64,000 bases of DNA from Eledone cirrhosa (lineage: Eukaryota), in contig OZ024740.1 of NCBI GenBank assembly GCA_964016885.1, forward strand, positions 80,042,001 to 80,106,000. Direction: 5' to 3'. Under the pieces are notes generated by a model. It worked only from the letters and a program-made list of their open reading frames with translations, searched no databases and was not told the DNA's origin. The position numbers were made by a program, and so were the translations under genes. Position 1 is the stretch's first letter. Each line of letters starts with the position of its first letter. Shown here piece by piece: positions 1 to 51,640 of the stretch.

Positions 1-1700
1 CAGACAGAGGGCTTAATCTTAGCTGTATAAGATCAAGCAATCAAATGAGATACATCAGAAAAAATATAAATAAGGAAGACATCTTGGTTGCATGTAGAGA
101 GATGATGGCACGTGTGGTTTCTGAATGCAAGATGATTACTTAGTAGGATTATATGAACATGGGGACATGACAAAATTCATACAATTTTACAATGGTGAAT
201 TTGTAAAAAGTTTCAATTTGAGTATGTGGAAATGTGGTCTGGTGTAACCATAAAACAGAACATGTCCTTGTAATATGCATGTAAAAGTACTTTGGAATAC
301 AAAGCTTCAAATGCATTCGTTAATGGAACATTCATGGCCAGATATTGTTATTCTCAATCATCATCATCATCATCACCGTTTTACGTCCGTTCTTCCATGC
401 TAGCATGGGTTAGACAGGTTGTCCTGTTGTGGGCAGTGTCTGGTCGGCTGACCATGCCTTGCTCATACAGGAACTGATCTGGCTTGATTTCTACAGCTGG
501 ATGCCCTTCCTAACACCAACCTCATTTACAGTGAGTGCTGGGTGCTTTTTTGTGGCGCCTACACGTCCACTTTACAGTGTGGGCTGGGTGCTTTTTTGCT
601 GTGGAACCTCCACGACCACCTTGCGGTGGGGGGAGTGGGGGCATATTGTTTATATGCTTCAGCATGTACCCATGGGAGGTCGGGTACCCTGTATTACTGC
701 GTGACGCCAGAAGTCACGGTCGTGTGTCATTGTCTTTGAGAGGTGTAGTTGGGTAAGGTCGGCTTTTATCACCTCATCCCAAGTCATCTTGGGTCTCCCC
801 ACTCCGCGGTTTCCATCAACTTCTAGTGCTCTGAACCTTTTTATGCAGCTGTCATCCTTCATACGCATCACATATCCATACCAGCGTAACCGCCTCTCCT
901 GCACGCAGCATTTGATTCCTCTTATGCTCAGTCTCTCTCTCAATTCCTTTATGCTTTGTCGTTCACGTATATTACTGTTACACATCCATCGGAGCATGCA
1001 GGCTTCGTTTCTCTCTAATCTACGTAAGTCTTCCACCTTCAGCGCCCAGGTCTCACTACCATGCAACATCGCTGTTCGGATACACGCATCATACAGTCTG
1101 CCTTTCATTCTGAGGGAGAAGCCTTTTGCAGCTAGCAGTGGTAGTAGTTCCCTAAACTTCTTCCATCCCGTTCTTACCCTAGTTATTGTACTTTCTGAGC
1201 ACCCACCTCCGTTGCTAATTCGGTCACCTAGGTAGCAGAAGCTGTCTACTGTTTCTACAGGGCCCTCCCAGAGATTGGTGGTACTTGTTTCCTGTGGCTG
1301 TTTGCTTGCTGTTTCAGCACAGCTGCTGCATGTGAATCCTACATTCTTAATTAAGCTTCCTGAGATCCCGCTACATCTCTTGTGTACCCATTGTTTGCAT
1401 TTGGGGCAGAGAATGGAGTTCCTACCTACACCTTTCCTACATACTGAGCAAGGCCATTTCCCTGAGGGGATCTGGGTTCTGTTTTCTCGTCTACTTACAA
1501 GGACCTTAGTCTTTGTCATGTTGACTTTGAGGCCCTTTCTCTCTAGTCCCTGCTTCCAGGTTTGGAATTTATTCTCTAGTTCTCAATAAAGAGGAAAAAG
1601 TGTGTTGGTTAATTCATATTGCTTATCTGTTTCATACTAGAGTGGTAGACAAAGAATGTGAGAAAATAGAATAATATCAAGACCTAAAATATGAAATGTG
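1..1700 (+). mobile_element. Decayed R4/Dong-type non-LTR retrotransposon C-terminus (zinc knuckle region + restriction-like endonuclease), split by an RTE insertion at ~359-1583
   Basis: Joining ~286-358 to 1588-1698 reads VLWNTKLQMHSLMEHSWPDIVILN-KEEKVCWLIHIA...KECEKIE*YQDLKYE, like the R4/Dong 'LWD..IQTD..I...RPDIV.....K.C..IDIA...KE.EKI.KYQDL' motif. Upstream remnants resemble TEGLI.A.QDQ and HVVSECK. Confidence 0.7.
359..1583 (-). mobile_element. RTE-clade LINE family A, 5'-truncated copy (PHD finger, RT C-terminus, 3' UTR, (GAT)n tail)
   Basis: ORF 659-1519 is near-identical to the C-terminal part of ORF 48946-51180. (CAT)n tail at 359-375. Direct repeat TTCTCAAT at 351-358 and 1580-1587 (TSD). 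Confidence 0.95.
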
Positions 1701-1955: not shown

Positions 1956-2207
1956 GTGCCACGGCAAAAAAGCACCCAGCCCACACTGTAAAGTGGACGT
2001 GTAGGCGCCACGAAAAAGCACCCAGCACTCACTGTAAATGAGGTTGGTGTTAGGAAGGGCATCCAGCTGTAGAAATCAAGCCAGATCAGTTCCTGTATGA
2101 GCAAGGCATGGTCAGCCGACCAGACACTGCCCACAACAGGACAACCCGTCTAACCCATGCTAGCGTGGAAGAACGGACGTAAAACGGTGATGATGATGAT
2201 GATGATG
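1956..2207 (+). mobile_element. RTE family A 3' UTR-only copy with (GAT)n tail
   Basis: Near-identical to 51234-51486. Confidence 0.9.
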
Positions 2208-2264
2208 AACACACAACATGCATATTATATGAAAAAGAAAAAAATATTTGGAAGTAGAGAAGCA

Positions 2265-2540
2265 ATCATCATCATCTTCCATGCTAGCATGGGTTTAGAC
2301 GGGAATTGTCACACTTGAGGCAAGATTGGTCGGGAGACCGTGTCTCACTTATATAGGGTTGGATGCCCTTCCTAACACCAACCACGTTTACAGTGTGGAC
2401 TGGGAGGTTTTTACCGTGTTACCTACACTGCCACATTACAGCGTGGACTGTGTTTTTTTGTCGTGACACCTACACGACCTCATTTATTTTGGACTGGATG
2501 TTGTGGTACCAACATAACTTTACAGAGAGAGGGTGGAGTG
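2265..2540 (-). mobile_element. RTE family B 3' UTR-only copy
   Basis: Reverse complement of the 3' UTR at 28555-28850, with a (CAT)n end. Confidence 0.85.
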
Positions 2541-2821: not shown

Positions 2822-3015
2822 AATAATAATTGTGTCTACTTTTGGCACAAGGCCAGCAATTATCCAGTGTATTACTGGTGCTTTATTTTATCGACCCCGA
2901 AGGATGAAAGGTAAAGTTAACCTCGGCAGGATTTGAACTCAGAATGGCAAGGGTCATAACTCTATGCGTCAAAGCATGATGTCCGACCCTCTACCAATAT
3001 TGCCAATCCACTGCC
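2822..3015 (-). mobile_element. tRNA-derived SINE family 1 (long A-B box spacer, Nin/Deu-like core, ATT tail)
   Basis: Reverse complement of the element at 26772-26965. Confidence 0.85.
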
Positions 3016-3169
3016 TTTATATCGAATAGTGTACTGGGTACTTTTTGTTATGACACCTACATGACCACTTTTCAGTGTGGGCTGGGTGCTTTTTGTCATG
3101 ACACCTATATGACCACTTTACATGAAAATTAAATGGAAAACAACACAGCAAAATGATATAATATATTAT

Positions 3170-13872: not shown

Positions 13873-16800
13873 TCATCATCATCATCATCGTCACCGTTTT
13901 ACGTCCGTTCTTCCACGCTAGCATGGGTTAGACGGGTTGTCCTGTTGTGGGCAGTGTCTGGTTGGCTGACCATGCCTTGCTCATACAGGAACTGATCTGG
14001 CTTGATTTCTACAGCTGGATGCCCTTCCTAACACCAACCTCATTTACAGTGAGTGCTGGGTGCTTTTTCGTGGCGCCTACACGTCCACTTTACAGTGTGG
14101 GCTGGGTGCTTTTTTGCCGTGGCACCTCCACGACCACCTTGCGGTGGGGGCATATTGTCTATATGCTTCAGCTTGTACCCATGGGAGGTCGGGTACTCTG
14201 TATTACTGCGTGACGCCAGAAGTCACGGTCGTGTGTCATTGCCTTTGAGAGGTGTAATTGGGTAAGTTCGGCTTTTATCACCTCATCCCAGGTCATCTTG
14301 GGTCTCCCCACTCTGCGGTTTCCATCAACTTCTAGTGCTCTGCACCTTTTTATGCAGCTGTCATCCTTCATACGCATCACATGTCCATACCAGCGCAACC
14401 GCCTCTCCTGCACACAGCATTTGATTCCTCTTATGCTCAGTCTCTCTCTCAATTCATTTATGCTTTGTCGTTCACATATATTACTGTTACACATCCATCG
14501 GAGCATGCAGGCTTCGTTTCTCTCTAATCTACGTAAGTCTTCCACCTTCAGCGCCCAGGTCTCACTACCATGCAGCATTGCTGTTCGGATACACGCATCA
14601 TACAGTCTGCCTTTCATTCTGAGGGAGAAGCCTTTTGCAGCTAGCAGTGGTAGTAGTTCCCTAAACTTCTTCCATCCCGTTCTTACCCTAGTTATTGTAC
14701 TTTCTGAACACCCACCTCCGCTGCTAATTCAGTCACCTAGGTAGCAGAAGCTGTCTACTGTCTCTACAGAGCCCTCCCAGAGATTGGTGGTACTTGTTTC
14801 CTGTGGCTGTTTGCTGCTTGCTGTCTCAGCACAACTGCTGCATGTGAATCCTACATTCTTAATTAAGCTTCCTGAGATCCCGCTACATCTCTTGTGTACC
14901 CATTGTTTGCATTTGGGGCAGAGAATGGAGTTCCTACCTACACCTTTCCTACATACTGAGCAAGGCCATTTCCCTGAGGGGATCTGGGTTCTGTTTTCTC
15001 GTCTACTTACAAGGACCTTAGTCTTTGTCATGTTGACTTTGAGACCCTTTCTTTCTAGTCCCTGCTTCCAAGTTTGGAATTTCTTCTCTAGTTCTACCAT
15101 AGATTCAGCTATGAGTGCGAGGTCATCAGCATACAGGAGTTCTCATGGGCATCCGGTCTTAAACTCCTCCGTTATTGCCTGCAGGACTATGATGAACAGG
15201 ATGGGGCTAAGAACAGAGCCCTGGTGGACCCCAACCTGTACGCTAAATTCCTCGCTATACTCATTGCTAATCGTAACTTTGCTGACTGCCCCCCTATACA
15301 TGGCTTGTACCGCTTTCACAAGCCATTCATCTACTCCTAGTTTTCTAAGAGCCCACCAGATTACAGCACGTGGAACTCTGTCAAAGGCTTTCTCGAGGTC
15401 GACAAATGCCAAGTAGAGTGGCTTACTTTTAGCTAGGTACTTTTCCTGTAATTGCCTCACAAGGAAGAGGGCATCAGTGGTGCCTCTTCCTGGTACAAAC
15501 CCAAATTGCATCTCGTCTATTTTCACCCGGTCCCTAATCAACTGTGCTATAACTCTTTCTGTTACTTTCATGACCTGGTCCATCAACTTTATACCTCTAT
15601 AGTTTCCTCTATCTAGTGCATCGCCTTTACCTTTGTAGCAGTTGACAATGATGCTACTGCACCAATCTTTTGGTATGACACCTTCTAGTATTACCTGGTT
15701 AACAATACGTGTGGTTATAGTGTGACCTACAGACCCAGATGCCTTCAGCATATCGGCAGCTATACCCGATGGACCGGCTGCCTTCCCCATCTTCATATCT
15801 TTGATTGCCTTACTTACTACGCTGCTGCTGACTTGTACTGCTGGCCCCTCTATAGGGTCTACTTGGGGTAGGGTCTCTTCTTCCCATGCATTCTCCTCAT
15901 TTAGTAATCTATCATAATGACTCTTCCATGCATCTTTCTTCTCAGCACTTGTGAGGGCAAGCTCACCTTTATCATTCTGGATACACTTCTCTCCAATGAC
16001 ATCACAACTATCTCTGACACACTGCCTCGCAATCTTGAATACCTCATGTTTCTGGTCCTTGCGTTGCAAAACATGCTTGAATTTTCTATCCTCTGCTTCC
16101 CTCCTAGCTAAGTATACTTGTCGCCTAGCTTCCCTCTTGGACTCTATGTAATGTACCCTGCTCCCCCCGTTCTTCCATTCTTTCCATGCCTGTCTCTTGG
16201 CCTTAACTGCTTCATCTACCTTATTGTTCCACCACCAAGTCACTCTCCTCTTGCTTGAGGTCTTACTCCAGCCACAGACCTCATCCGTCGCCTCTAGTAA
16301 ATTATTTTTTAGGAACTCCCAGTTCTCTTCTACATTAAATGTCTCTATCTGTTCTTCTTTACTGTTGTAGGCTTTGAGTAAAATATCTTTAAATCTGTTA
16401 CTGGTTGAGGGGACTTTCAGCTTCCAGATCTTTCTTCTCCAGGTTGGCCTCTGTTTCCAGGTTCGTCTAGTTCTGACCGTGAGGTCGCTGACAACTAAGC
16501 TATGTTGGGATGTACATTCCTCACTAGGGAAAGCTTTTGTGTTTACGACCGTCCATCTGTCACGTCCTCTGATGAGGATAAAATCTATCTGACTAGAGTG
16601 CTCCCCTGATCTATAGGTGATCAGGTGGTTGTCAGGTTTTTTAAAGTTTGTGTTACATATTGACATGTCATTGGCGTCGCAGAATTCTAGAAGTCTGAAT
16701 CCTTCTTCATTCCTTGTGCCAACCCCATGGCCTCCATGTACTTTATTGAAGCCGTCGCAGTTTTTACCTACGTGTCCGTTAAAATATCCTGCGATGATTA

Positions 16801-17290
16801 GGAAGTCATTGTCGTCTGTTAGAGCAGTAGTGTGCATTAGGGACTCGTAAAACCTATCCTTAAGTTCGTCTGGCAGCCCCGATTGGGGTGTGTAAGCTGA
16901 TATTATTGTGGTAATTGTTTTATTCAGGACTAGTCTGAGTTTAATGATTCTTGCATTTACCCTGTACACTGAGATTACTTTATCTACCCACTTGTCAGCT
17001 AGTAGTATACCTACAGCACCCATCCCATCGTCATTTCCCACCCAGAAAAATTTGTAGCACCGACTTTTTCCTACCAGGACTCTGGCAGACTCTCCTCTCC
17101 ATCTAGTCTCTTGCACACAGCATACATCAATTTCCTTTCGCTCTAGCATTTCTACGATTTCTCCTGCTCTTCCTTTCATTGAGCCTACATTGATGGTACC
17201 AACTCGGAGTTTTGGGCATTTATCGACACTCGTAGGGAAGGGTCTCTGGATTGGCGCTTCACATGGGTGCTTGGTAGCTCGCAGATTCAT
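13873..17290 (-). mobile_element. RTE family A, near full-length copy (APE endonuclease + RT + PHD), two nonsense mutations
   Basis: ORFs 15143-17290, 14729-15100 and 14168-14617 are in one frame, separated by TGG>TGA and CGA>TGA stops relative to other copies. APE motifs (VQETRW, FNGHVG, IDFIL, SQH) and RT motifs (QFGF, DLEKAFD, VHQGSVLSP, YADD) are present. Confidence 0.96.
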
Positions 17291-17599
17291 ATTTCATCTA
17301 TTGATTCAGAGTTGTATATAAGTATTATTGTGTAGAAGTCATTTTAGCTATTTTAAGCACACAAAACCTGTTAATTTTATTTTATATACAGTGTCCCATA
17401 TTTATTAGATTGCTGTTTAAGTGTGTATACATGTTTTTGGGACATCCTGTATATATCATTTATTTCTTGCCATCATAGATTTCATCTCACTGTCACAGTT
17501 TCACTGCAGGATCGTAGCATGATGATAGTTACAGCTATGAGGAAGTTGGTGCTGCATGGTAGAGAGAGATGCATGAAAAATATATCTATATATATATAT

Positions 17600-26771: not shown

Positions 26772-26965
26772 ACGGTGGATTGGCAGTATCGGTAGAGGGT
26801 CGGACGCTATGCTTTGACGTATAGAGTTACGGCCCTTGCCATTCTGAGTTCAAATCCCGCCGAGGTTAACTTTGCTGTTCATCCTTACGGGGTCGATAAA
26901 ATAAAGTACCAGTAATGTACTGGGTAATTGCTGGCCTTGTGCCTAAAGTAGAAACAATTGTTATT
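26772..26965 (+). mobile_element. tRNA-derived SINE family 1, well-preserved copy
   Basis: A box TGGCAGTATCGG, B box GAGTTCAAATCC, core TTTCATCCTTACGGGGTCGATAAAATAAAGTACCAG, 3' end GGCCTTGTGCC.AAAGTAGAAACAATT. More than 12 further full or partial copies in the window. Confidence 0.88.
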
Positions 26966-27039: not shown

Positions 27040-30000
27040 AATAATTGCTTTTATTTTCCTCAAGGTGATGGAATGGAAGAGACATTACAAAAAAAACATT
27101 GTGGTTTCATTAAAATAAGTCAAGTGAGAAAATAAGTAACATATACACAGTATACAAGTTAGGTATACATGGTATACAATTATATGAAATATTCAGTCCT
27201 CTTGGTACAGAGATTTGAATACCTAAGGCTAATTTAGGAACCCCACAGTTCCACAACCACTTTCATTACCAAGGGCAAGTACCCTCTCCCACCTGTTGTT
27301 TGATCTACAATCACAAGCTGAGAATAGTATCATTCACTTTTACCATTATTGCTAGTTTCACCCACTTTTTGGAATATGTGCTGGAGGAGAGAACCTCCCT
27401 CTCCTTTCTCATCTTTCTTTGCAAGTGGAACTTGAAAACGTCAATGAGAGCTTGACTTTCATTCTTGTCTTCCACACAACCTCTTATGCCATAGACACTA
27501 GACAGGAAAACTGCTTGCCCACCCCTGTTAAAGATGGCATGGTGATCTTCAGTTGATAGCTAGATCTGTCAAAGATGCAACATTTTTTCAACATAACTCC
27601 ACAAGTCAGCAATACATGGGCATCAGATGAGTGCATGCATCTTGGACATGTCTGTCTGACAGCCCTTCCATATGTGTAGAGTTTATCTTGAACCAGCAAT
27701 GCCCACTTATAGCACTGTCAGGCCAGAGATCTGGAAATTATCCATAGACCATATGCTGAAAGTCCTCTGGAACACACCAGCCAGTTCGTTCTCATAGATG
27801 TAATCATTCACCACCTCTACCCAATCTTTCAGGGATAGCTTTCTCTAGGACCTTTTTTGAATAAGACCCTGCCACCCTGCTTGTAACGTCACCCTAGTTT
27901 CTATCCACCAAGAAGCCCAGACCGAACCAGACCCAAAATAGTTTAATGAGTACAGTAGCTAGAGTCAGAACTGGATAGAAAAAGTTCAGAGAGCTTATAC
28001 CACTATTAGCCGCTAAAGGGTTCTCCCTAAAAATGAAAGGCAGGCTGTATGATGCCTGCATACGAACAGCAATGTTACATGGCACTGAGACCTGGGCATT
28101 GTGTGCAGAGGATATACGCAGACTGGAGAGGAACGAAGCTTGCATGCTCTGCTGGATATGTAATAGTAATATACGTGAACGGCAAAGCATAAACGAACTA
28201 AGGAAAAAATTAGAAATAAGAGGGATCAGATGTTGTTTACTCGAGAGAAGGCTACGTTGGTATGGTCACATGATGCGCATGAAAGACGACAGCTGTATAA
28301 AAAAGTGCAGGGCAATAAAGATAGACGGTAGCCACGGAGTAGGCAGACCCAGAAAAACCTGGGACGACTTGATAAATTCCGACCTCACACACTTACACCT
28401 CTCCAAGACAATGTCACTGGACCGAGATCTTTGGCGCTACACAGTAATAGAGAAGACCCGCCTTATCTAAGTACAAAGTGAAACCTACTACAGTCAGTAG
28501 GCACCTCTAACAAAATACACCCCCGTCCCACTACCCCCACCCCATCCACACCACCCCTTTCAATGTAAAGTTATGTTGGTACCACAACATCCAGCCTGAA
28601 ACAAATGAGGTCGTGTAGGTGTCACGACAAAAAAAAAACACAGTCCACGCTGTAATGTGGCCGTGTAGGTAACACGGTAAAAACCTCCCAGTCCCACACT
28701 GTAAACATGGTTGGTGTTAGGAAGGGCATCCAGCCGTAGAAAACCCGCCAGACAGTCCTATGCGAGCAAGACAATCACTCTTGCCTCAAGTGGGAAAACT
28801 CCCGTCCAAACCCATGCAAGCATGGAATATGGACGTTAAACGATAATGATAAGTCCATTGTTGTAGTGGCCCATGACACTGAAGGCATGGACTTGTCTCT
28901 GCTGGTTGCCGAGCTGCAAGCCCACCAACTTGCTTGGGCTGATTTTGGCTCCTGCAACCTCATATTTCTTTAGAGTGTTACTGACCACTTCCAATCCTAT
29001 GGTATCTGACACCATCATAGTGATATCATCTGTGTATGATGACACTGCCCTTCTATGTTCCCGTTTGAAAGGGATGCACCTCAACAGTTCTAGCTTCCCT
29101 ATCAGTGACCCGAGAGTCTGCACATACAGAAGAGATGAGAGAAGACATCCCTGATGAACTGAGCACTTGATATGTGATGACTCTGAGAGGTGGCTGTTTA
29201 CTTTTACCACCAAGCAGGTGCTGCTGCATGCACTGTCATGATCCATCTCCTTTAAGGACAGCTGCCAAGTACTGATGGTTAAGCCTATCAAAAGCTTTCG
29301 ATAGATCTAAGTTGATCAAAGATCCACGAAAGCTAGGTTTACTCCCTACCCTCTCTATGAGGTATTGTATAAAGTTGTGATTGTCATAGATATGTCTGTT
29401 TAGGATCACATGTGTTTGTGCTTTCCTGACCAAACGTTCAACAAATAACAACAACTTTGCTAACACCTTGCCCAAAATGTTTAACTCTCTTCAGTAAAGT
29501 TATGGGAGGGACATTTCCATTATCTCTTTTTTGGTTGTGTCTTTCTTGAGTAACACTATCATTCCTTTGAGTAGCACTATCACTCCTCAGCTCACTGAAA
29601 TGGGGATTCTTTCATTCTGCTGTTAATTGTGGTAGACATCTGCTTAGATGTTGCTAAAAAATTCTGGCATATACTAGTAAAACTTGTTGGGGAAAACCAT
29701 CCAAACTGGGTGTTCTGCATCCTGCGCAACTGCTTATTGCTTCCCATATCTCTGCTACAGTTGTCACACTATCACAGCATTTTGTATCTCTTACTGAGAG
29801 TTGTGGCAGTTGACGTAGGCATTAAAGTCTTGACCCATTACTTGTCCCGAACAGTTGGGCAAAATGCTGTTGGAAAGCTGTGAACATTTGCCTAGCTCTT
29901 TGAACATCTCCTGCTTATTAGGGTCAATCAAGACCAAATTGGGACATTATTGCCTTATTGTGCATCCACCACTTGGGCCCTTTGAATGACTTTCATTCTT

Positions 30001-33173: not shown

Positions 33174-36100
33174 AAGCGCCAATCCAGAGAGAGGAAGCAC
33201 ACACACACCCCTGTAAAAATCGACCCTTCGCTACGAGTGTCGACAAATGCCCAAAACTCCGAGTTGGTACCATCAATGTAAGCACGGTGAAAGGAAGAGC
33301 AGGAGAAATCGTAGAGATGCTAGAGAAAAAGGAAATTGATGTATGCTGTGTGCAAGAGACTAGATGGAGAGGAGAGTCTGCTAGAGTTCTGGTAGGAAAA
33401 AGTCGGTGCTACAAATTTTTCTGGGTGGGAAATGACGATGGGATGGGTGGTGTAGGTATACTACTAGCTGACAAGTGGGTAGATAAAGTAATCTCAGTGT
33501 ACAGGATAAATGCAAGAATCATTAAACTCAGACTAGTCCTGAATAAAACAATTACCACAATAATATCAGCTTACACACCCCAATCGGGGTTGCCAGACGA
33601 ACTTAAGGATAGATTTTACGAGTCCCTAATGCATGCTACTGCTCTAACAAATGACAATGACTTCCTAATCATCGCAGGATATTTTAACGGACACGTAGGT
33701 AAACACTGTGACGGCTTCAATAGAATCCATGGAGACCATGGGGTTGGCACAAGAAATGAAGAAGGATTCAGACTTCTAGAATTCTGCGACGCCAATGACA
33801 TGTCGATATGTAACACAAACTTCAAAAAACCCGACAACCACCTGATCACCTATAGATCAGGGGAGCATTCTAGTCAGATAGATTTTATCCTCATCAGAGG
33901 ACGTGACAGAAGGACGGTCGTAAACACAAAAGCCTTCCCTAGTGAGGAATGTACCTCCCAACATAGCTTAGTTGTCAGCGACCTCACGGTCAGAACTAGA
34001 CGAACCTGGAAACAGAGGCCAACTGGGAGAAGAAAGATCTGGAAGCTGAAAGACCCCTCAGCCAGAACAGATTTAAAGATATTTTACTCAACACCTACGA
34101 CAGTAAAGAAGAACAGATAGAGACATTCAATGTAGAAGAGAACTGGGAGTTCCTAAAAAATAACTTACTAGAGGCGACAGATGAGGTCTGTGGCTGGAGT
34201 AAAACCACAAGCAGGAGGAGAGTGACTTGGTGGTGGAACAATAAGGTAGATGAGGCAGTTAAGGCCAAGAGACAGGCATGGAAAGTATGGGACAACGGGG
34301 GGAGCAGGGTACATTACATAGAGAACAAGAGGGAAGTTAGGCGACAAGTATACTTAGCTAGGAGGGAAGCAGAGGATAGAAAATTCAAGCATGTTTTGCA
34401 ACGTGAGGACCAGAAACAGGAGGTGTTCAAGATTACGAGGCAGTTTGTCAGAGAGAATTGTGATGTCATTGGAGAGAAGTGTATCCGGAATGATAAAGGT
34501 GAGCTTGCCTCACAAGTGCTGAGAAGAAAGATGCATGGAAGAGTCATTATGATAGATTACTAAATGAGGAGAATGCATGGGAAGAAGAGACCCTACCCCA
34601 AGTAGACCCTATAGAGGGGCCAGCAGTACAAGTCAGCAGCAACGTAGTAAGTAAGGCAATCAAAGATATTAAGATGGGGAAGGCAACCGGTTCATCGGGT
34701 ATAGCTGCCGATATGCTGAAGGCATCTAGGTCTGTAGGTCACACTATAACCACACGTATTGTTAACCAGGTAATACTAGAAGGTGTCATACCAAAAGATT
34801 GGTGCAGTAGCATCATTGTCAACTGCTACAAAGGTAAAGGTGATGCACTCAATAGAGGAAACTATGGAGGTATAAAGCTGATGGACCAGGTCATGAAAGT
34901 AACAGAAAGAGTTATAGCAAAGTTGATTAGGGACCGGGTGAAACTAGATGAGATGCAATTTGGGTTTGTACCAGGAAGAGGCACCACTGATGCCCTCTTC
35001 CTTGTGAGGCAGTTACAGGAAAAGTACCTAGCTAAAAGTAAGCCACTCTACCTGGCATTCATCGATCTCGAGAAAGCCTTTGACAGAGTTCCACGTGCTG
35101 TAATCTGGTGGGCTCTTAGAAAACTAGGAGTAGATGAATGGCTTGTGAAAGCTGTACAAGCCATGTATAGGGGAGCAGTCAGCAAAGTTAGAATTAGCAA
35201 TGAGTATAGCGAGGAATTTAGCGTACAGGTTGGGGTCCACCAGAGCTCTGTTCCTAGCCCTCTCCTGTTCATCATAGTCCTGCAGGCAATAATGGAGGAG
35301 TTTAAGACCGGATGCCCATGGGAACTCCTGTATGCAGATGACCTTGCACTTATAGCTGAATCTATGGTAGAACTAGAGAAGAAATTCCAAATTTGGAAGC
35401 AGGGACTAGAAAGAAAGGGTCTCAAAGTCAACATGACAAAGACTAAGGTCCTTGTAAGTAGACGAGAAAACAGAACCCAGATTCCCTCAGGGAAATGGCC
35501 TTGCTCAGTATGTAGGAAAGGTGTAGGTCGGAACTCCATTCTTTACCCCAAATGCAAACAATGGGTACACAAGAGATGTAGCGGGATCTCAGGAAGCTTA
35601 ATTAAGAAGAATGTAGGCTTCACATGCAGCAGATGTACTGGGACAGCAAGCAGCAAACAGCCACAGGAAACAAGTACCACTAATCTCTGGGAGGGCTCTG
35701 TAGAGACAGTAGACAGCTTCTGCTACCTAGGTGACCGAATTAGCAGCGGAGGTGGGTGTTCAGAAAGTACAATAACTAGGGTAAGAACAAGATGGAAGAA
35801 GTTCAGGGAACTACTACCACTGCTAGCTGCAAAAGGCTTCTCCCTCAAAATGAAAGGCAGACTGTATGATGCGTGTATCCGAACAGCAATGTTACATGGT
35901 AGTGAGACCTGGGTGCTGAAGGTGGAAGACTTACGTAGATTAGAGAGAAACGAAGCCTGCATGCTCCGATGGATGTGTAATAGTAATATACGCGAACGAC
36001 AAAGCATAAATGAATTGAGAGAGAGACTGAGCATAAGAGGAATCAAATGCTGTGTGCAGGAGAGGCGGATGCGTTGGTATGGACATGTGATGCGTATGAA

Positions 36101-36592
36101 GGATGACAGCTGCATAAAAAGGTGCAGAGCACTAGAAGTCGATGGAAACCGCGGAGTGGGGAGACCCAAGATGACCTGGGATGATGTGATAAAAGCCGAC
36201 CTTACCCAATTACACCTCTCAAAGGTGATGACACACGACCGTGACCTCTGGCGTCACGCAGTCATACAGAGTACCCGACCTCCCATGGGTACAAGCTGAA
36301 GCATATAGACAATATGCCCCCACTGCAAGGTGGTCGTGGAGGTGCCACGGCAAAAAAGCACCCAGCTGACACTGTAAAGTGGACGTGTAGGCGCCACGAA
36401 AAAAAAGCACCCAGCACTCACTGTAAATGAGGTTGGTGTTAGGAAGGGCATCCAGCTGTAGAAATCAAGCCAAATCAGTTCCTGTATGGGCAAGGCATGG
36501 TCAGCCGACCAGACACTGCCCACAACAGGACAACCCGTCTAACCCATGCTAGCGTGGAAGAACGGACGTAAAACGGTGATGATGATGATGAT
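33174..36592 (+). mobile_element. RTE family A, near full-length copy with two frameshifts
   Basis: ORFs 33287-34120 (APE), 34222-34563 and 34674-36299 (RT+PHD), full 3' UTR and (GAT)n tail. Confidence 0.96.
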
Positions 36593-36950
36593 ATATATAT
36601 TCACTGCATATAACTTCATGGCTCATAATATAACATTATGTCTGCAGTAAATATCTGTTAACCCTGTTGAAATCAATGGATTGCCCTTGCTATTTATGAA
36701 TATTGCTTTGTTAAAACTCTATAAACTCCAATTCATTTTAGGAAAACTACTATTGTTCCAAACAACTTTTAATACAAATGACACCATACTTTTTGAACTA
36801 TAACATTTTTAAAACTATAAATTCCAATTTATTCTAGAAAATACTACTTCCTTTTTTGGACTACAATATTCTTTGAACTACATTTGTAACTGATTTATTT
36901 TGATATTTTTATGTTTTTTGTTTTTTTCTTGAGTGATTTGTATTAGTATT

Positions 36951-44277: not shown

Positions 44278-45510
44278 ATTATTTTACTTAGATGTTCAAA
44301 TCCCGCCGAGGTTAACTTTGCCTTTCATCCTTACGGGGTCGATAAAATAAAGTACCAGTAATACACTGGATATTTGCTGGCCTTGTGCCAAAAGTAGAAA
44401 CAATTATTTTACTTAGATGTATTATGTAGAGGATAGCGTGAAATTTATTTAATTATGTGACACCTGGTTTTCTTAGTCCATTCTGCAAGTATAAACAACG
44501 AGAATACGAAAGGGTTTCACATATGTAATATAGTGAGTGTAGAAGTGTTAATCAACTCGGATTTTGGCAGTATCAGTAGAGGGTTGGACGCCATGCTTTG
44601 ACGCATAGAGTTACTGCCCTTGCCATTCTGAGTTCAAATCCCGCCGAGGTTAACTTTGCCTTTCATCCTTACGGGGTCGATAAAATAAAGTACCAGTAAT
44701 GTACTGGGTAATTGCTGGCCTTGTGCCAAAAGTAGAAACAATTATTTAAGTAGTTTGTACGCAAACTTTATTGCAAGCGGTGTTTACAATCTAAAATACA
44801 CAACAAATAAACAAATAATGACAGGGGAGATAACTCTAATAAGAGAACGTGTGATTGAAATTTTGTTGTTTCTACTTTAGCACAAGGCCAGCAAATAACC
44901 AGTACATTACTGGTACTTTATTTTATCGATCCCATAAGGATGAAAGGCAAAGTAAACATCGGCGGGATTTGAGCTCAGACCGTAAAGGGACGTAACTATG
45001 TGCTGGAAAGTATGGCGTCCGACTCTCTACCGATACTGCCAAATAATTGTTTCTACTTTTGGCACAAGGCCTGCAAAGTACCCAGTGCATTATTATAATA
45101 TAATGAAATTATTGTGTACAGTGCCCAGGTGCACTACAACTCATCAAAGGTGCATGTATAGTACATAGAATAATGTACAAATGTCAGGAAAATGAACAGT
45201 GTATGAGTCATGATATAATAATAATATGAAATATTGTGTACAGTGCCCAGGTGCACCACAACTCATCAAAAAGTGCATGTACAGTACATAGGGCAATGCA
45301 CAAACATCAGGAAAATGAACAGTGCATGAATCATGATACACACGTGTGCATGTGTATGGAAGGGGTACATCAGGTGTAGTTTTGGTGTATTGGTACTTTC
45401 AAATAATTGTTTCTACTTTAGGCACAAGGCCAGCAATTACCCAGTACATTACTGGTACTTTATTTTATCAACCCCGTAAGGATGAAAAGCAAAGTTAATC
45501 TCGGCGGTTT
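44278..45510. mobile_element. Cluster of SINE family 1 copies in both orientations plus tandem CR1 3' UTR fragments
   Basis: SINEs at ~44294-44405 (+), 44563-44746 (+), 44866-45042 (-), 45043-45093 (-) and 45402-45508 (-). CR1 3' ends at ~45098-45215 and ~45220-45385 match 3924-4085. Confidence 0.85.
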
Positions 45511-46904: not shown

Positions 46905-49900
46905 ACTCACAGAGCTGAAAGTGTTGGTTAAGGTGTTTGCCAAGGGTTACTTGTCATTTTGGTAGTGTAATTGGTGATGCACAAACTTGTGCGATCCCTG
47001 GCAGATCTATCCACAACAACCTCCACCTCATGAGATATATCATATAAGGGGTCAGAAGTAGACATGACTTTGGTGGAGTTCTGGTTAATTTAGATCAGTC
47101 CAAAGTATTTGACAGAGTAGACCATTGCTACCTAGTGGCTGTCCTAAGAACTGCTGGTTTGGGCCTCGTTTTCAGAAGCTGGATTGCTACATTTTATTGC
47201 AGCATCCATTTGGTGGTCAAACTAAATGGCCACTTATTGGACCCTTTCCATATCAAACTCTTGTTTTGCCAGAAATGCCTCCCCACCCCTATGTTGGCTT
47301 TGGAGTCTCTGTTGTGGAGAATAGAAATCTTGAGAGTAATTTCACTTGAACCTGGTCATAGTAGAGATGTGTCTGTGTCTGCAGATGATGTTACAGCCAT
47401 AGTGTTGGCCACTTCACATATAGAATCAGTTGGCCCCATTCTTGAAGAATACCAGCAGGTAACTGGTGCTTGCATTAACTGAGATAAGTCAGTATGTTTG
47501 AAACTCGGTCCATGGATAAGAAAGCCCATGTTGGAGAGTGGAAATATTTGCTGCTGTACCAATGCCCCAGTCAGAATGCTTAGGTCATGAATAAAGTAGC
47601 TTATCTCACTCAGAAATAAGCAAAGAGAAAACTGTTTATCAAAGGTCGCATGAAAGTGGCAAACATGTACAGCTTCGGTGGTATATTACCACCTGACAGT
47701 TGTACCACATTCCCCAAAACACCTAACCAAAAATGATCCGCTTTTTGTGGAAGGGCCAAGTCCAGCTAGTCAGAAAATCCATATACTACCAACATCCACG
47801 CCATGGTGGACTTGGGATGCTGTCACTATTGATGGGCTATGGCTATTGCACCTATGCAATTACCCCAGAACATAATGAAGACAATAACGAAAGCGAACCC
47901 CAACCAGTGTAGGTGCCTTTCGTGTAACATGTCTTTCCACAGCTTGTCTCCTTGACCGAGCTACTGTCCTGCTTTAAGCACAGACCAAGGTTGGCTAAAT
48001 GGCATCTATAATCCTGCCAGGCACACACAGCATTTTACCAACTGAATAACACTTGCATTCTATAGAGTGTTAGTGGAAGGTAATAGTCGTTTCTACTTTT
48101 GGCACAAGGCCAGCAATTACCCAGTACATTACTGGTACTTTATTTTATCGACCTCGTAAGGATGAAAGGCAAAGTTAACCTCGACAGGATTTGAACTCAG
48201 ACCGTAAAGGGATGTAACTATGCTGGAAAGCATGGCGTCCAACCCTCTACCGATACTGCCAATTCGGCTTGGGATTGGCTCTCTGTGTCAATCATGACAA
48301 TCTGAACAGGTTCTTCTGGAGGACCTTCAGTTTGGGGATTATGGGCAATTTCCAAAACTCCTTGGCATGGAAGTGCTACAGAAGGGCGCTACTAGTTCGA
48401 GAGAAGCTCTATAGGCATGGAAGTGCCAATAGCCAAACCTGTTTTGAGATGCATGTAGGGCACTGAAACTGTTTTGCATGCTATCATCCAGTGCCCATGC
48501 CTTGCAGGGTTGTGGGCTTGTTTCGAACAACTATTATGTATAGGATAGATCTAGCTATCAGCCAGGTCTATAGTAAAAATTCAACTGACACCTTTTAGAA
48601 AAGAGGTGCGGCAAATCTTCCTCTTCCCAGTAGCTATGGTGTATGAATCTGTATGATAGACACACCTAAAAGGATTGAGGTTAGGAATTGTCTGGCCAAC
48701 CCCTCTCAACTTCAAGTTCCACTTGAAGAGGAAGGTGAGGGTAAAGAGGGAAGTGCTAGCTTCTAGTATGTTTTATGAAAGATGGGTGAGAGTGATGAGG
48801 CTGAATGGGCCTATACTGACTATGCTTTTCTAAACAGGAGGAAGGAAACTGTGAGAGGGCTCTTTCAATGCCCTGTGAGGCAACCAAGTATGGAGTTCTC
48901 GCTGGAATTACCCTATGAAGGAACTGGTCTTGTTGACATTCGTTATTGTTTTCTAATGTTATGTATATTTTACTCAACGCCTACGACAGTAAAGAAGAAC
49001 AGATAGAGACATTTAACGTAGAAGAGAACTGGGAGTTCCTAAAAAATAACTTACTAGAGGCGACGGATGAGGTTTGTGGCTGGAGTAAGACCTCAAGCAG
49101 GAGGAGAGTGACTTGGTGGTGGAACAATAAGGTAGATGAAGCAGTCAAGGCCAAGAGACAGGCATGGAAAGAATGGAAGAACGGGGGGAGCAGGGTACAT
49201 TACATAGAGACCAAGAGGGAAGCTAGGCGACAAGTATACTTAGCTAGGAGGGAAGCAGAGGATAGAAAATTCAAGCATGTTTTACAACGTGAGGACCAGA
49301 AACAGGAGGTATTCAAGATTGCGAGGCAGTGTGTCAGAGATAGTTGTGATGTCATTGGAGAGAAGTGTATCCGGAATGATAAAGGTGAGCTTGCCCTCAC
49401 AAGTGCTGAGAAGAAAGATGCATGGAAGAGTCATTATGATAGATTACTAAATGAGGAGAATGCATGGGAAGAAGAGACCCTACCCCACGTAGACCCTATA
49501 GAGGGACCAGCAGTACAAGTCAGCGGCAGCGTAGTAAGTAAGGCAATCAGAGATATGAAGATAGGGAAGGCAACCGGTCCATCGGGTATAGCTGCCGAGA
49601 TGCTGAAGGCATCTGGGTCTGTAGGTCACACTATAACCACACGTATCGTTAACCAGGTAATACTAGAGGGGGCCATACCAAAAGATTGGTGCAGTAGCAT
49701 CATTGTCAACTGCTACAAAGGTAAAGGCGATGCACTAGATAGAGGAAACTATAGAGGTATAAAGTTGATGGACCAGGTCATGAAAGTAACAGAAAGAGTT
49801 ATAGCACAGCTGATTAGGGACCGGGTGAATATAGACGAGATGCAATTTGGGTTTGTTCCAGGGAAAGGCACCACTGATGCGCTCTTCCTTGTGAGGCAAT

Positions 49901-51640
49901 TACAGGAAAAGTACCTAGCTAAAAGTAAGCCACTCTACCTGGCATTTGTCGACCTTGAGAAAGCCTTTGACAGAGTTCCACGTGCAGTAATCTGGTGGGC
50001 TCTTAGAAAACTAGGAGTAGATGAATGGCTTGTGAAAGCGGTACAAGCCATGTATAGGGGAGCAGTCAGCAAAGTTAGGATTGGCAATGAGTATAGCGAG
50101 GAATTTAGCGTACAGGTTGGGGTCCACCAGGGCTCTGTTCTTAGCCCTCTCCTGTTCATCATAGTCCTGCAGGCAATAACGGAGGAGTTTAAGACCGGAT
50201 GCCCATGGGAACTCCTGTATGCTGATGACCTCGCACTCATAGCTGAATCTATGGTAGAACTAGAGAATAAATTCCAAACCTGGAAGCAGGGACTAGAGAG
50301 AAAGGGCCTCAAAGTCAACATGACAAAGACTAAGGTCCTTATAAGTAGACGAGAAAACAGAACCCAGATCCCCTCAGGGAAATGGCCTTGCTCAGTATGT
50401 AGGAAAGGTGTAGGTAGGAACTCCATTCTTTGCCCCAAATGCAAACAATGGGTACACAAGAGATGTAGCGGGATCTCAGGAAGCTTAATTAAGAATGTAG
50501 GATTCACATGCAGCAGCTGTGCTGAAACAGCAAGCAAACAGCCACAGGAAACAAGTACCACCAATCTCTGGGAGGGCCCTGTAGAAACAGTAGACAGCTT
50601 CTGCTACCTAGGTGACCGAATTAGCAACGGAGGTGGGTGCTCAGAAAGTACAATAACTAGGGTAAGAACGGGATGGAAGAAGTTTAGGGAACTACTACCA
50701 CTGCTAGCTGCAAAAGGCTTCTCCCTCAGAATGAAAGGCAGACTGTATGATGCGTGTATCCGAACAGCGATGTTGCATGGTAGTGAGACCTGGGCGCTGA
50801 AGGTGGAAGACTTACGTAGATTAGAGAGAAACGAAGCCTGCATGCTCCGATGGATGTGTAACAGTAATATACGTGAACGACAAAGCATAAATGAATTGAG
50901 AGAGAGACTGAGCATAAGAGGAATCAAATGCTGCGTGCAGGAGAGGCGGTTACGCTGGTATGGACATGTGATGCGTATGAAGGATGACAGCTGCATAAAA
51001 AGGTGCAGAGCACTAGAAGTTGATGGAAACCGCGGAGTGGGGAGACCCAAGATGACTTGGGATGAGGTGATAAAAGCCGACCTTACCCAACTACACCTCT
51101 CAAAGTCAATGACACACGACCGTGACTTCTGGCGTCACGCAGTAATACAGGGTACCCGACCTCCCATGGGTACATGCTGAAGCATATAAACAATATGCCC
51201 CCCCCCCCCCCCCACCGCAAGGTGGTCGTGGAGGTGCCACTGCAAAAAAGCACCCAGCCCACACTGTAAAGTGGACGTGTAGGCGCCACGAAAAAGCACC
51301 CAGCACTCACTGTAAATGAGGTTGGTGTTAGGAAGGGCATCCAGCTGTAGAAATCAAGCCAGATCAGTTCCTGTATGAGCAAGGCATGGTCAGCCGACCA
51401 GACACTGCCCACAACAGGACAACCCGTCTAACCCATGCTAGCGTGGAAGAACGGACGTAAAACGGTGATGATGATGATGATGATGATTTATTACAAATTC
51501 TTTCATTGTTATTCCCTATTGTTTTCTCTTTAGTAATGTTTCCTTTCCTTCATTCAGTGCAAAACCCCACCCTGTCATTTTATTTTGTCCATGTATTATC
51601 CCCAATGTCTTAGGTCCTTGTGGCAAATAATGATAATAAT
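46905..51640 (+). mobile_element. Second degenerate L1/Tx1-clade LINE (RT to 3' end) hosting a SINE (48088-48266, -) and an RTE (48965-51486)
   Basis: AQTCAIPGRSIHNNLHLMRYI, LDQSKVFDRVDH.YL, SADDVT, YQQVTGACIN and WKCYRRAL.VREKLY motifs. The T-rich 3' UTR appears to resume after 51486. Confidence 0.75.
48965..51486 (+). mobile_element. RTE family A, young 5'-truncated copy with uninterrupted ~740-codon RT/PHD frame (no endonuclease)
   Basis: ORF 48946-51180 is stop-free with YADD intact, followed by the full 3' UTR and (GAT)7. Confidence 0.96.

Follow-up and report, generated by a model that had tools for sequence, protein, structure and literature searches.

Hairpin units in the 3' UTR of an RTE-clade LINE of Eledone cirrhosa: possible derivation from an RTE 5'-UTR domain

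Why does a LINE whose RNA ends in a short (GAT)n repeat carry an array of hairpins between its stop codon and that tail? The question was raised by a copy of an RTE-clade LINE, family A (RTE-A), in a 64,000-nt stretch of the genome of Eledone cirrhosa, hereafter the window. The first-pass annotation had described the RTE-A 3' UTR as built of repeated modules of about 50 nt. A check against the letters confirmed that the stop of the RT ORF is followed by two units of about 48 nt, a third hairpin and (GAT)n, and that the family B, SINE and relic sequences had been quoted accurately. The copy is composed as follows.

48965..51487 (+): RTE-clade LINE of family A, 5'-truncated copy; its open frame, 48937-51180, encodes RT and a Cys-rich domain of PHD-like type
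51152..51199 (+): former 3' tail, now decayed, over the stop codon, then an AT-alternating remnant; probably the old element end, 30/50 identical to the RTE-D tail
51212..51225 (+): hairpin H1, CCACC-GCAA-GGTGG
51226..51257 (+): unit 1, with stem S1 and loop AGGTG, A6 linker, loop-complementary GCACC and CAG; one C.U mismatch in the window copy
51258..51274 (+): hairpin H2, CACT-GTAA-AGTG
51275..51303 (+): unit 2, degenerate, with a 4-bp stem, loop TAGGCGC and a C.A mismatch against GCACC
51306..51320 (+): hairpin H3, CTCA-CTGTAAA-TGAG (CACA/TGTG in family B)
51320..51353 (+): conserved motif hairpin containing AGGAAGGGCATCC and leaving into A-rich sequence; in RTE-D and metagenome RTEs the motif belongs to the 5' UTR
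51421..51487 (+): present 3' tail, with terminal hairpin CCATGC/GCGTGG, GGACGTAAAA and (GAT)n; common to family B, RTE-D and the SINE

A profile search identified the RT in frame 48937-51180 (PF00078, E 5e-32), and a PF03372 endonuclease and a PF00078 RT shared one frame at 15146-17293 (-), in a sister RTE-A copy. A PHD-like Cys-rich domain (PF00628) was located behind the RT core of RTE-A (window 50389-50520 (+), ORF residues 485-528). The (GAT)n end is a short tandem-repeat 3' terminus as in RTE-clade LINEs. The RTE-clade label is suggested by the architecture and by an RTE 5' word in D. The unit block sits 160-250 nt from the 3' end, and the present tail, with its terminal hairpin, is likely the RT recognition signal. 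In older RTE-A copies, longer (TA)-like runs were observed behind the stop codon. A 26-nt word of the third module had 86,132 exact matches in the 3.0-Gb genome, and its reversed control had 0.

The other copies observed in the window were the following.

33222..36600 (+): second RTE-A copy, same 3' UTR
13873..17293 (-): third RTE-A copy
357..1583 (-): truncated RTE-A copy
1956..2208 (+): RTE-A copy, 3' UTR alone
27949..28850 (+): family B copy, RT end and 3' UTR
62811..63151 (+): family B 3' UTR, unit 2 loop AGGCA
2273..2540 (-): family B 3' UTR fragment
59138..59480 (+): SINE with a tRNA-like head, a CORE-like segment, one unit, H3 and the motif hairpin, and the RTE-D tail
3031..3125 (-): old two-unit relic, C type

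The SINE corresponds to an A-type block joined to a D tail (tail identity 48/55); its CORE word matched WALLSI2 at 15/17 letters, compared by eye, and ARAGORN called no tRNA in it. The proposal that a duplicated, conserved, hairpin-forming cis-element is common to LINE families and a SINE was supported. A variant of family B repeats a 112-nt block, including the motif hairpin, two to four times (loci L036, 3734-4070 (-), and L080, 1503-1613).

The structure of the units was described from 423 unit matches parsed from about 1 Mb of sequence, a sample enriched by targeted searches. The pair closing the GCAA loop of H1 was C-G in 30 cases, U-A in 25, U-G in 12 and C.A in 1, the U forms being borne by older copies. 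Both sides of H3 had changed, with CTCA/TGAG in family A (76) versus CACA/TGTG in family B (29, five commonest spellings). Compensation in the hairpins is real, with fair support from these sequences. Stem S1 was paired in 86.8% of the cells of an alignment of 16 natural rows chosen by hand, and its closing pair exhibited three Watson-Crick types, as for a stem maintained by compensatory change, and was unpaired in 6 of the 16 rows. The S1 stem had been given as CGTG...CACG; the window copy reads CGTG...CACT (51227-51241), with a C.U mismatch. In the hairpin ahead of family B unit 2, the GTAA lacks a closing Watson-Crick pair. A very young A subfamily with a broken S1 pair was represented by 20 copies, in a sample enriched for that subfamily. 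The folding energy of eight stretches was no better than that of shuffles (z from -0.16 to -1.46; ViennaRNA, which cannot score pseudoknots).

Each unit had also been proposed to form an H-type pseudoknot, its loop pairing with the GCACC behind the A-rich linker. In families A to D, and likewise in the SINE, the lead unit is able to form 4-5 such loop-tail pairs; a loop partner equal to the 5-bp one of unit 1 is found in 1.4% of the element's 12-mers, and a 4-bp one in 12.6%. The complementarity held for the unit 1 loop, but GGCGC in unit 2 has a central C.A mismatch, in a haplotype of 31 copies. Family B was said to keep the geometry: its unit 2 does pair, but in a shifted register alone, and the loop AGGCA, one copy of which is at window 62949, breaks the pairing in 19 of the 35 copies of two main haplotypes. 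The compensatory pair of the relic is present, but with CpG on both arms, so that CpG decay can yield such a pair; this decay accounts for some of the apparent compensation. A loop partner of the third module, TTCCT/TCCTA, was found in A and B, but was absent from RTE-D (6/115 among the metagenome matches listed).

Over the 16 rows, 76.3% of the cells of the loop-tail stem (5 pairs) were paired and 24% unpaired. The covariation score was reached by 3 of 500 shuffles, within a range for which the tool warns that 5-25% of unconstrained alignments score alike; only two pairs had changed on both sides, as was matched in 135 of 500 shuffles. In the B2 lineage, counted genome-wide by eye, loop GGTG met a mismatching tail letter in 84 of the 87 matches, a set that probably includes many mutated B2 copies. 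Loop GGAG (114 matches, 100 of them listed, about 50 loci after collapsing arrays) met the matching tail letter at 24 loci and a mismatching A at 24. Loop-tail pairing thus covaries weakly and is broken in several master types. The two compensatory changes in this stem speak for the pseudoknot, but breaks were equally common and downstream units lose the pairing; it is conceivable, if somewhat short of an even chance, that the lead units fold as a compact H-type pseudoknot.

A sister family, RTE-D, carries the same block at its front. The units and the AGGAAGGGCATCC motif were located upstream of the endonuclease in 16 of the 16 loci fetched, a sample obtained with a D-leader query, which establishes that the arrangement exists and does not give its frequency. 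The leader comprises 1-7 tandem 89-nt units, each with the same loop, A-linker and GCACC, then the motif and then the endonuclease, the units being placed several hundred nt inside it. At the other side, a (GAT)n tail directly followed the ORF, with no 3' UTR, in all of the ends reached (11/11). RTE-D has near-identical young copies, and its homology to RTE-A continues beyond the motif into the D leader. The D leader also carries GGCAACC-GTCTAGGAG, which is part of the RTE 5' domain as published for OegopSINE. The block thus behaves as an RTE 5'-UTR domain: an autonomous RTE has it upstream of its coding region (16/16 RTE-D loci), and three metagenome RTEs have the motif there. The D units of 89 nt also include a long hairpin, TAGAGAGG...CCTCTCTA, that the 3' UTR units lack (locus L334, 822-950, and other RTE-D leaders).

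These observations bear on the role first assigned to the modules, that of a tandem pseudoknot array replacing poly(A), blocking nucleases or serving as a 3' RT signal. The pairs available to every lead unit and the covariation score are in line with such an array, and the pseudoknots of R2 3' UTRs offer a precedent. However, no modules precede the (GAT)n end of RTE-D, a family with young copies; the loop-tail stem is often broken, its score lies within the unconstrained range, and the units are distant from the 3' end, which bears a separate hairpin common to the families. Since D reaches the same (GAT)n terminus with no units at its 3' side, neither a poly(A)-substitute nor a terminal RT-signal role of the units is needed, and we consider such a role quite unlikely. 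The modules are real and partly as earlier described, but they are not an invention of the 3' end.

Tandem units in a leader recall the 5' UTR of mouse L1, which is made of tandem monomers. The block might thus consist of DNA-level promoter or enhancer monomers that were carried along to the 3' end. The number of tandem 89-nt units in the RTE-D 5' UTR fits this reading, as does the motif in metagenome copies, where 13 nt are invariant and the pairing partner strand varies freely; Kojima speculates that regulators bind RTE 5' sequences. On the other hand, the H1 pair passes through G-U and H3 shows a double change, compensations which are strand-specific, and the block is retained at 3' ends and in a Pol III-type SINE. 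Promoter monomers are therefore unlikely. A block that is kept in the 5' UTR of one family, at the 3' side of others and within this SINE, and that shows RNA-type compensation, is best fitted by a position-tolerant RNA signal that would be recognized by an RTE protein.

Outside this genome, the motif was found in at least 120 metagenome stretches. A twister-like word was present no more than 50 nt upstream of it in 76 of the 121 metagenome matches listed; among 81 listed matches, 3 were followed at a distance of about 300 nt by an RTE endonuclease. Rfam models placed a twister-P1 directly upstream of the motif in four of the seven metagenome loci scanned (E 7e-9 to 2e-3, below the gathering score), and a pseudoknot reading of these leaders was dropped. 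In the Eledone genome, other RTE families were found to begin precisely with Twister-P1 (nine loci, L277-L285, about 1500-1555; 40-50 bits, below the gathering score). It often comes immediately behind (TA)n and is followed by a different hairpin and CGTAAAA. A second metagenome repeat had the motif near its 5' end and no twister-like word (loci L219, L227, L234, L255 and L261). Contigs of four other organisms carry a D-like unit, hairpin and motif with 80-95% likeness, as judged from the contigs themselves; no variant was listed for the loop, over which there were few sequences. In viral contigs, the 26 matches to a 16-nt pattern were all in unrelated contexts. One pattern for an older unit type gave 0 matches.

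In other RTEs, the position immediately 5' of the motif belongs to the twister. The units stand in that position and have short words in common with the twister, such as TAAAGTGG, so that they could be derived from it by rearrangement or represent a novel ribozyme capable of self-cleavage. Their similarity to the 76 twister-bearing leaders was, however, no better than that of shuffles, 69-266 of 300 of which reached it. The units gave no Rfam ribozyme hit and did not match the conserved core of RF03160; the D units are far inside the leader, and cleavage within a 3' UTR would sever the ORF. Either reading is hardly credible. The Rfam search that had been recommended gave 0 hits in the window at the gathering score, the six hits of an E-value scan of 51100-51520 were all attributable to chance, and no ribozyme was found in 12 RTE-D leaders or 10 RTE-A leader loci. 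Weak hammerhead HH9 matches were observed outside the RTE-D leader (locus L321, 552-628 (-), 25 bits, and 879-955 (+), 21 bits).

Families A and B formed one clade (support 100/100, or 100/99 with distant RTEs as outgroup and the D rows outside), the A/B clades being assigned from the sequences themselves and most near-identical A rows having been thinned out; in the rooted tree, the D rows formed an unresolved comb and the bootstrap had not settled. Among 34 RTE-A-like ORF starts, many of them truncated, 33 had no motif within 700 nt upstream, the exception being a separate family B end. The RTE-A 5' end lies beyond the sequence shared to about 890 nt upstream, and may hold another copy of the block.

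When A and B were compared in one pair of window copies, the H3-motif core was identical at 43/50 positions, gap-free, the units at 68/86 and the tail at 36/43, versus 40/73 columns in an indel-rich spacer and 95/169 third codon positions. The core is thus kept above third codon positions in these sequences, although the copies number more than 86,000 and gene conversion between them could mimic conservation. The block might alternatively be a neutral hitchhiker, captured by accident, behaving as a minisatellite and homogenised by conversion. The 48-nt unit does expand into genomic arrays of 32 and 38 units, one unit type has 490 exact matches, many within arrays, broken pairs are frequent, and part of the compensation may be due to CpG decay. 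Set against this are a core conserved far beyond third codon positions and spacer, the stepwise compensation in H1 and the recurrence of the motif in other organisms, and we regard a hitchhiker as improbable.

The positions of the block in RTE-D and metagenome RTEs, the A/B clade and the old tail at the stop codon together indicate that the 3' UTR likely consists of a captured RTE 5' domain and a new tail, as in the known bipartite RTE SINEs. A copy composed of an RTE 5' part and a 3' tail would have inserted into a (TA)n run behind the master LINE; by read-through, the tail of the inserted copy would become the new element end, and the old tail would then decay at the stop codon. Additional units would have arisen by tandem slippage, followed by decay. 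Tail identity to the D tail was 48/55 for the SINE and 36/46 for A. Two D ends (loci L339 and L342) continue into a (TA) run and then into a truncated block that bears a tail of its own, and serve as a model of capture; a bipartite donor with exactly the A/B junction was not identified among the sequences examined. The favoured explanation, which we hold with about even confidence, is that the block is an RTE 5'-UTR domain, likely moved once to the 3' UTR of the A/B ancestor, where it has probably been retained because its folded RNA serves the RTE protein as a signal. The direction of this move, the binding of the protein and a benefit to retrotransposition are what we infer from the arrangement.

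Parts of this arrangement have precedents. Bipartite RTEs and the tRNA-CORE-RTE5'-RTE3' SINEs (WALLSI2 and the Ceph-SINEs) combine the middle part of an RTE 5' UTR with an RTE 3' tail (PMC5786205). The window SINE has the same build as the latter; in RTE-A and B, unlike in those elements, the 5' domain and tail form the 3' UTR of autonomous LINEs. The AGGAAGGGCATCC string is absent from the supplement text of PMC5786205, and no structure is proposed in the portions of that paper accessible to us. Twister variants are known at the 5' end of the RTE Perere-3 (PMC8501958), as in the twister-P1-started leaders of this genome's other RTE families and those preceding the metagenome motif; the present modules, in contrast, are not twisters, and the accessible text of PMC8501958 makes no mention of the hairpin behind the ribozyme. 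The 3' UTR of R2 elements of birds and turtles forms a pseudoknot-hinge-stem bound by the element's protein (PMC12180492), and by analogy the block may be a LINE 3' UTR fold for the element's protein. The R2 fold, however, occurs once, at the terminus, and has been demonstrated by structural work and rescue mutants, whereas the present units are tandem, subterminal, of probable 5' origin and predicted to fold. RTE-2_OV of Octopus vulgaris is an RTE with a zinc finger and a microsatellite end (PMC9115989); by its description, this microsatellite starts at the ORF end, as in RTE-D, and the text seen describes no 3' UTR of modules.

The motif had also been said to recall Meta/MESC, a short conserved stretch of metazoan retroposons that follows the tRNA head (PMC4824008, PMC4758252). 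This resemblance was not borne out: the printed Meta/MESC sequence, including that in the PMC4758252 supplement, is unlike the AGGAAGGGCATCC motif, which was not found in the searchable supplements. In the literature search, the motif string was found in three unrelated papers, and no report of the motif, the units or such a block as a LINE 3' UTR was found, including in the accessible parts of PMC13282606, PMC9115989 and 10.1101/2022.11.04.512097; Repbase, Dfam, SINEBase and Ohshima and Okada 1994 were outside this search and may have them catalogued. RTE 5' parts in SINEs are already known; the use of a 5'-domain block as a LINE 3' UTR was not found reported.

A broader and more tentative idea, which may well prove wrong, is that of a hitherto undescribed RNA signal shared across RTE lineages. 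The AGGAAGGGCATCC hairpin, whose usual place is next to the 5' twister on its downstream side, would load the RTE protein at any position; one lineage would have added pseudoknot-capable repeats and moved the block to its 3' UTR, where even truncated copies and SINEs keep it, driving more than 86,000 copies. Hardly any LINEs other than RTEs give rise to bipartite derivatives or supply SINEs with parts of their 5' UTR, a pattern that calls for an explanation. In this genome, the block is found at the front of one family, at the 3' side of its sisters and in the body of a SINE, with graded stem variants; this offers a natural experiment in which the role of the RTE 5' domain is directly testable. 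If true, an RNA loading signal that works regardless of position would be relevant to gene insertion methods based on retrotransposons.

Other repeats were observed alongside these elements. Minisatellite arrays of the 48-nt unit contained 15 to 38 or more copies, some of them extending over several kb (loci L360 and L366; G000 C3 near 130.79 Mb and at 226.02-226.04 Mb). Another abundant SINE-like family of about 185 nt, free of modules, was found at window positions 26780-26962, 44564-44746, 48082-48262 and 2825-3011. Finally, a 5.8-kb (TA)n tract at window 57036-62807 holds SINE and LINE insertions, and (TA)n flanks many copies of families A, B and D and of the SINE, which suggests a target preference.
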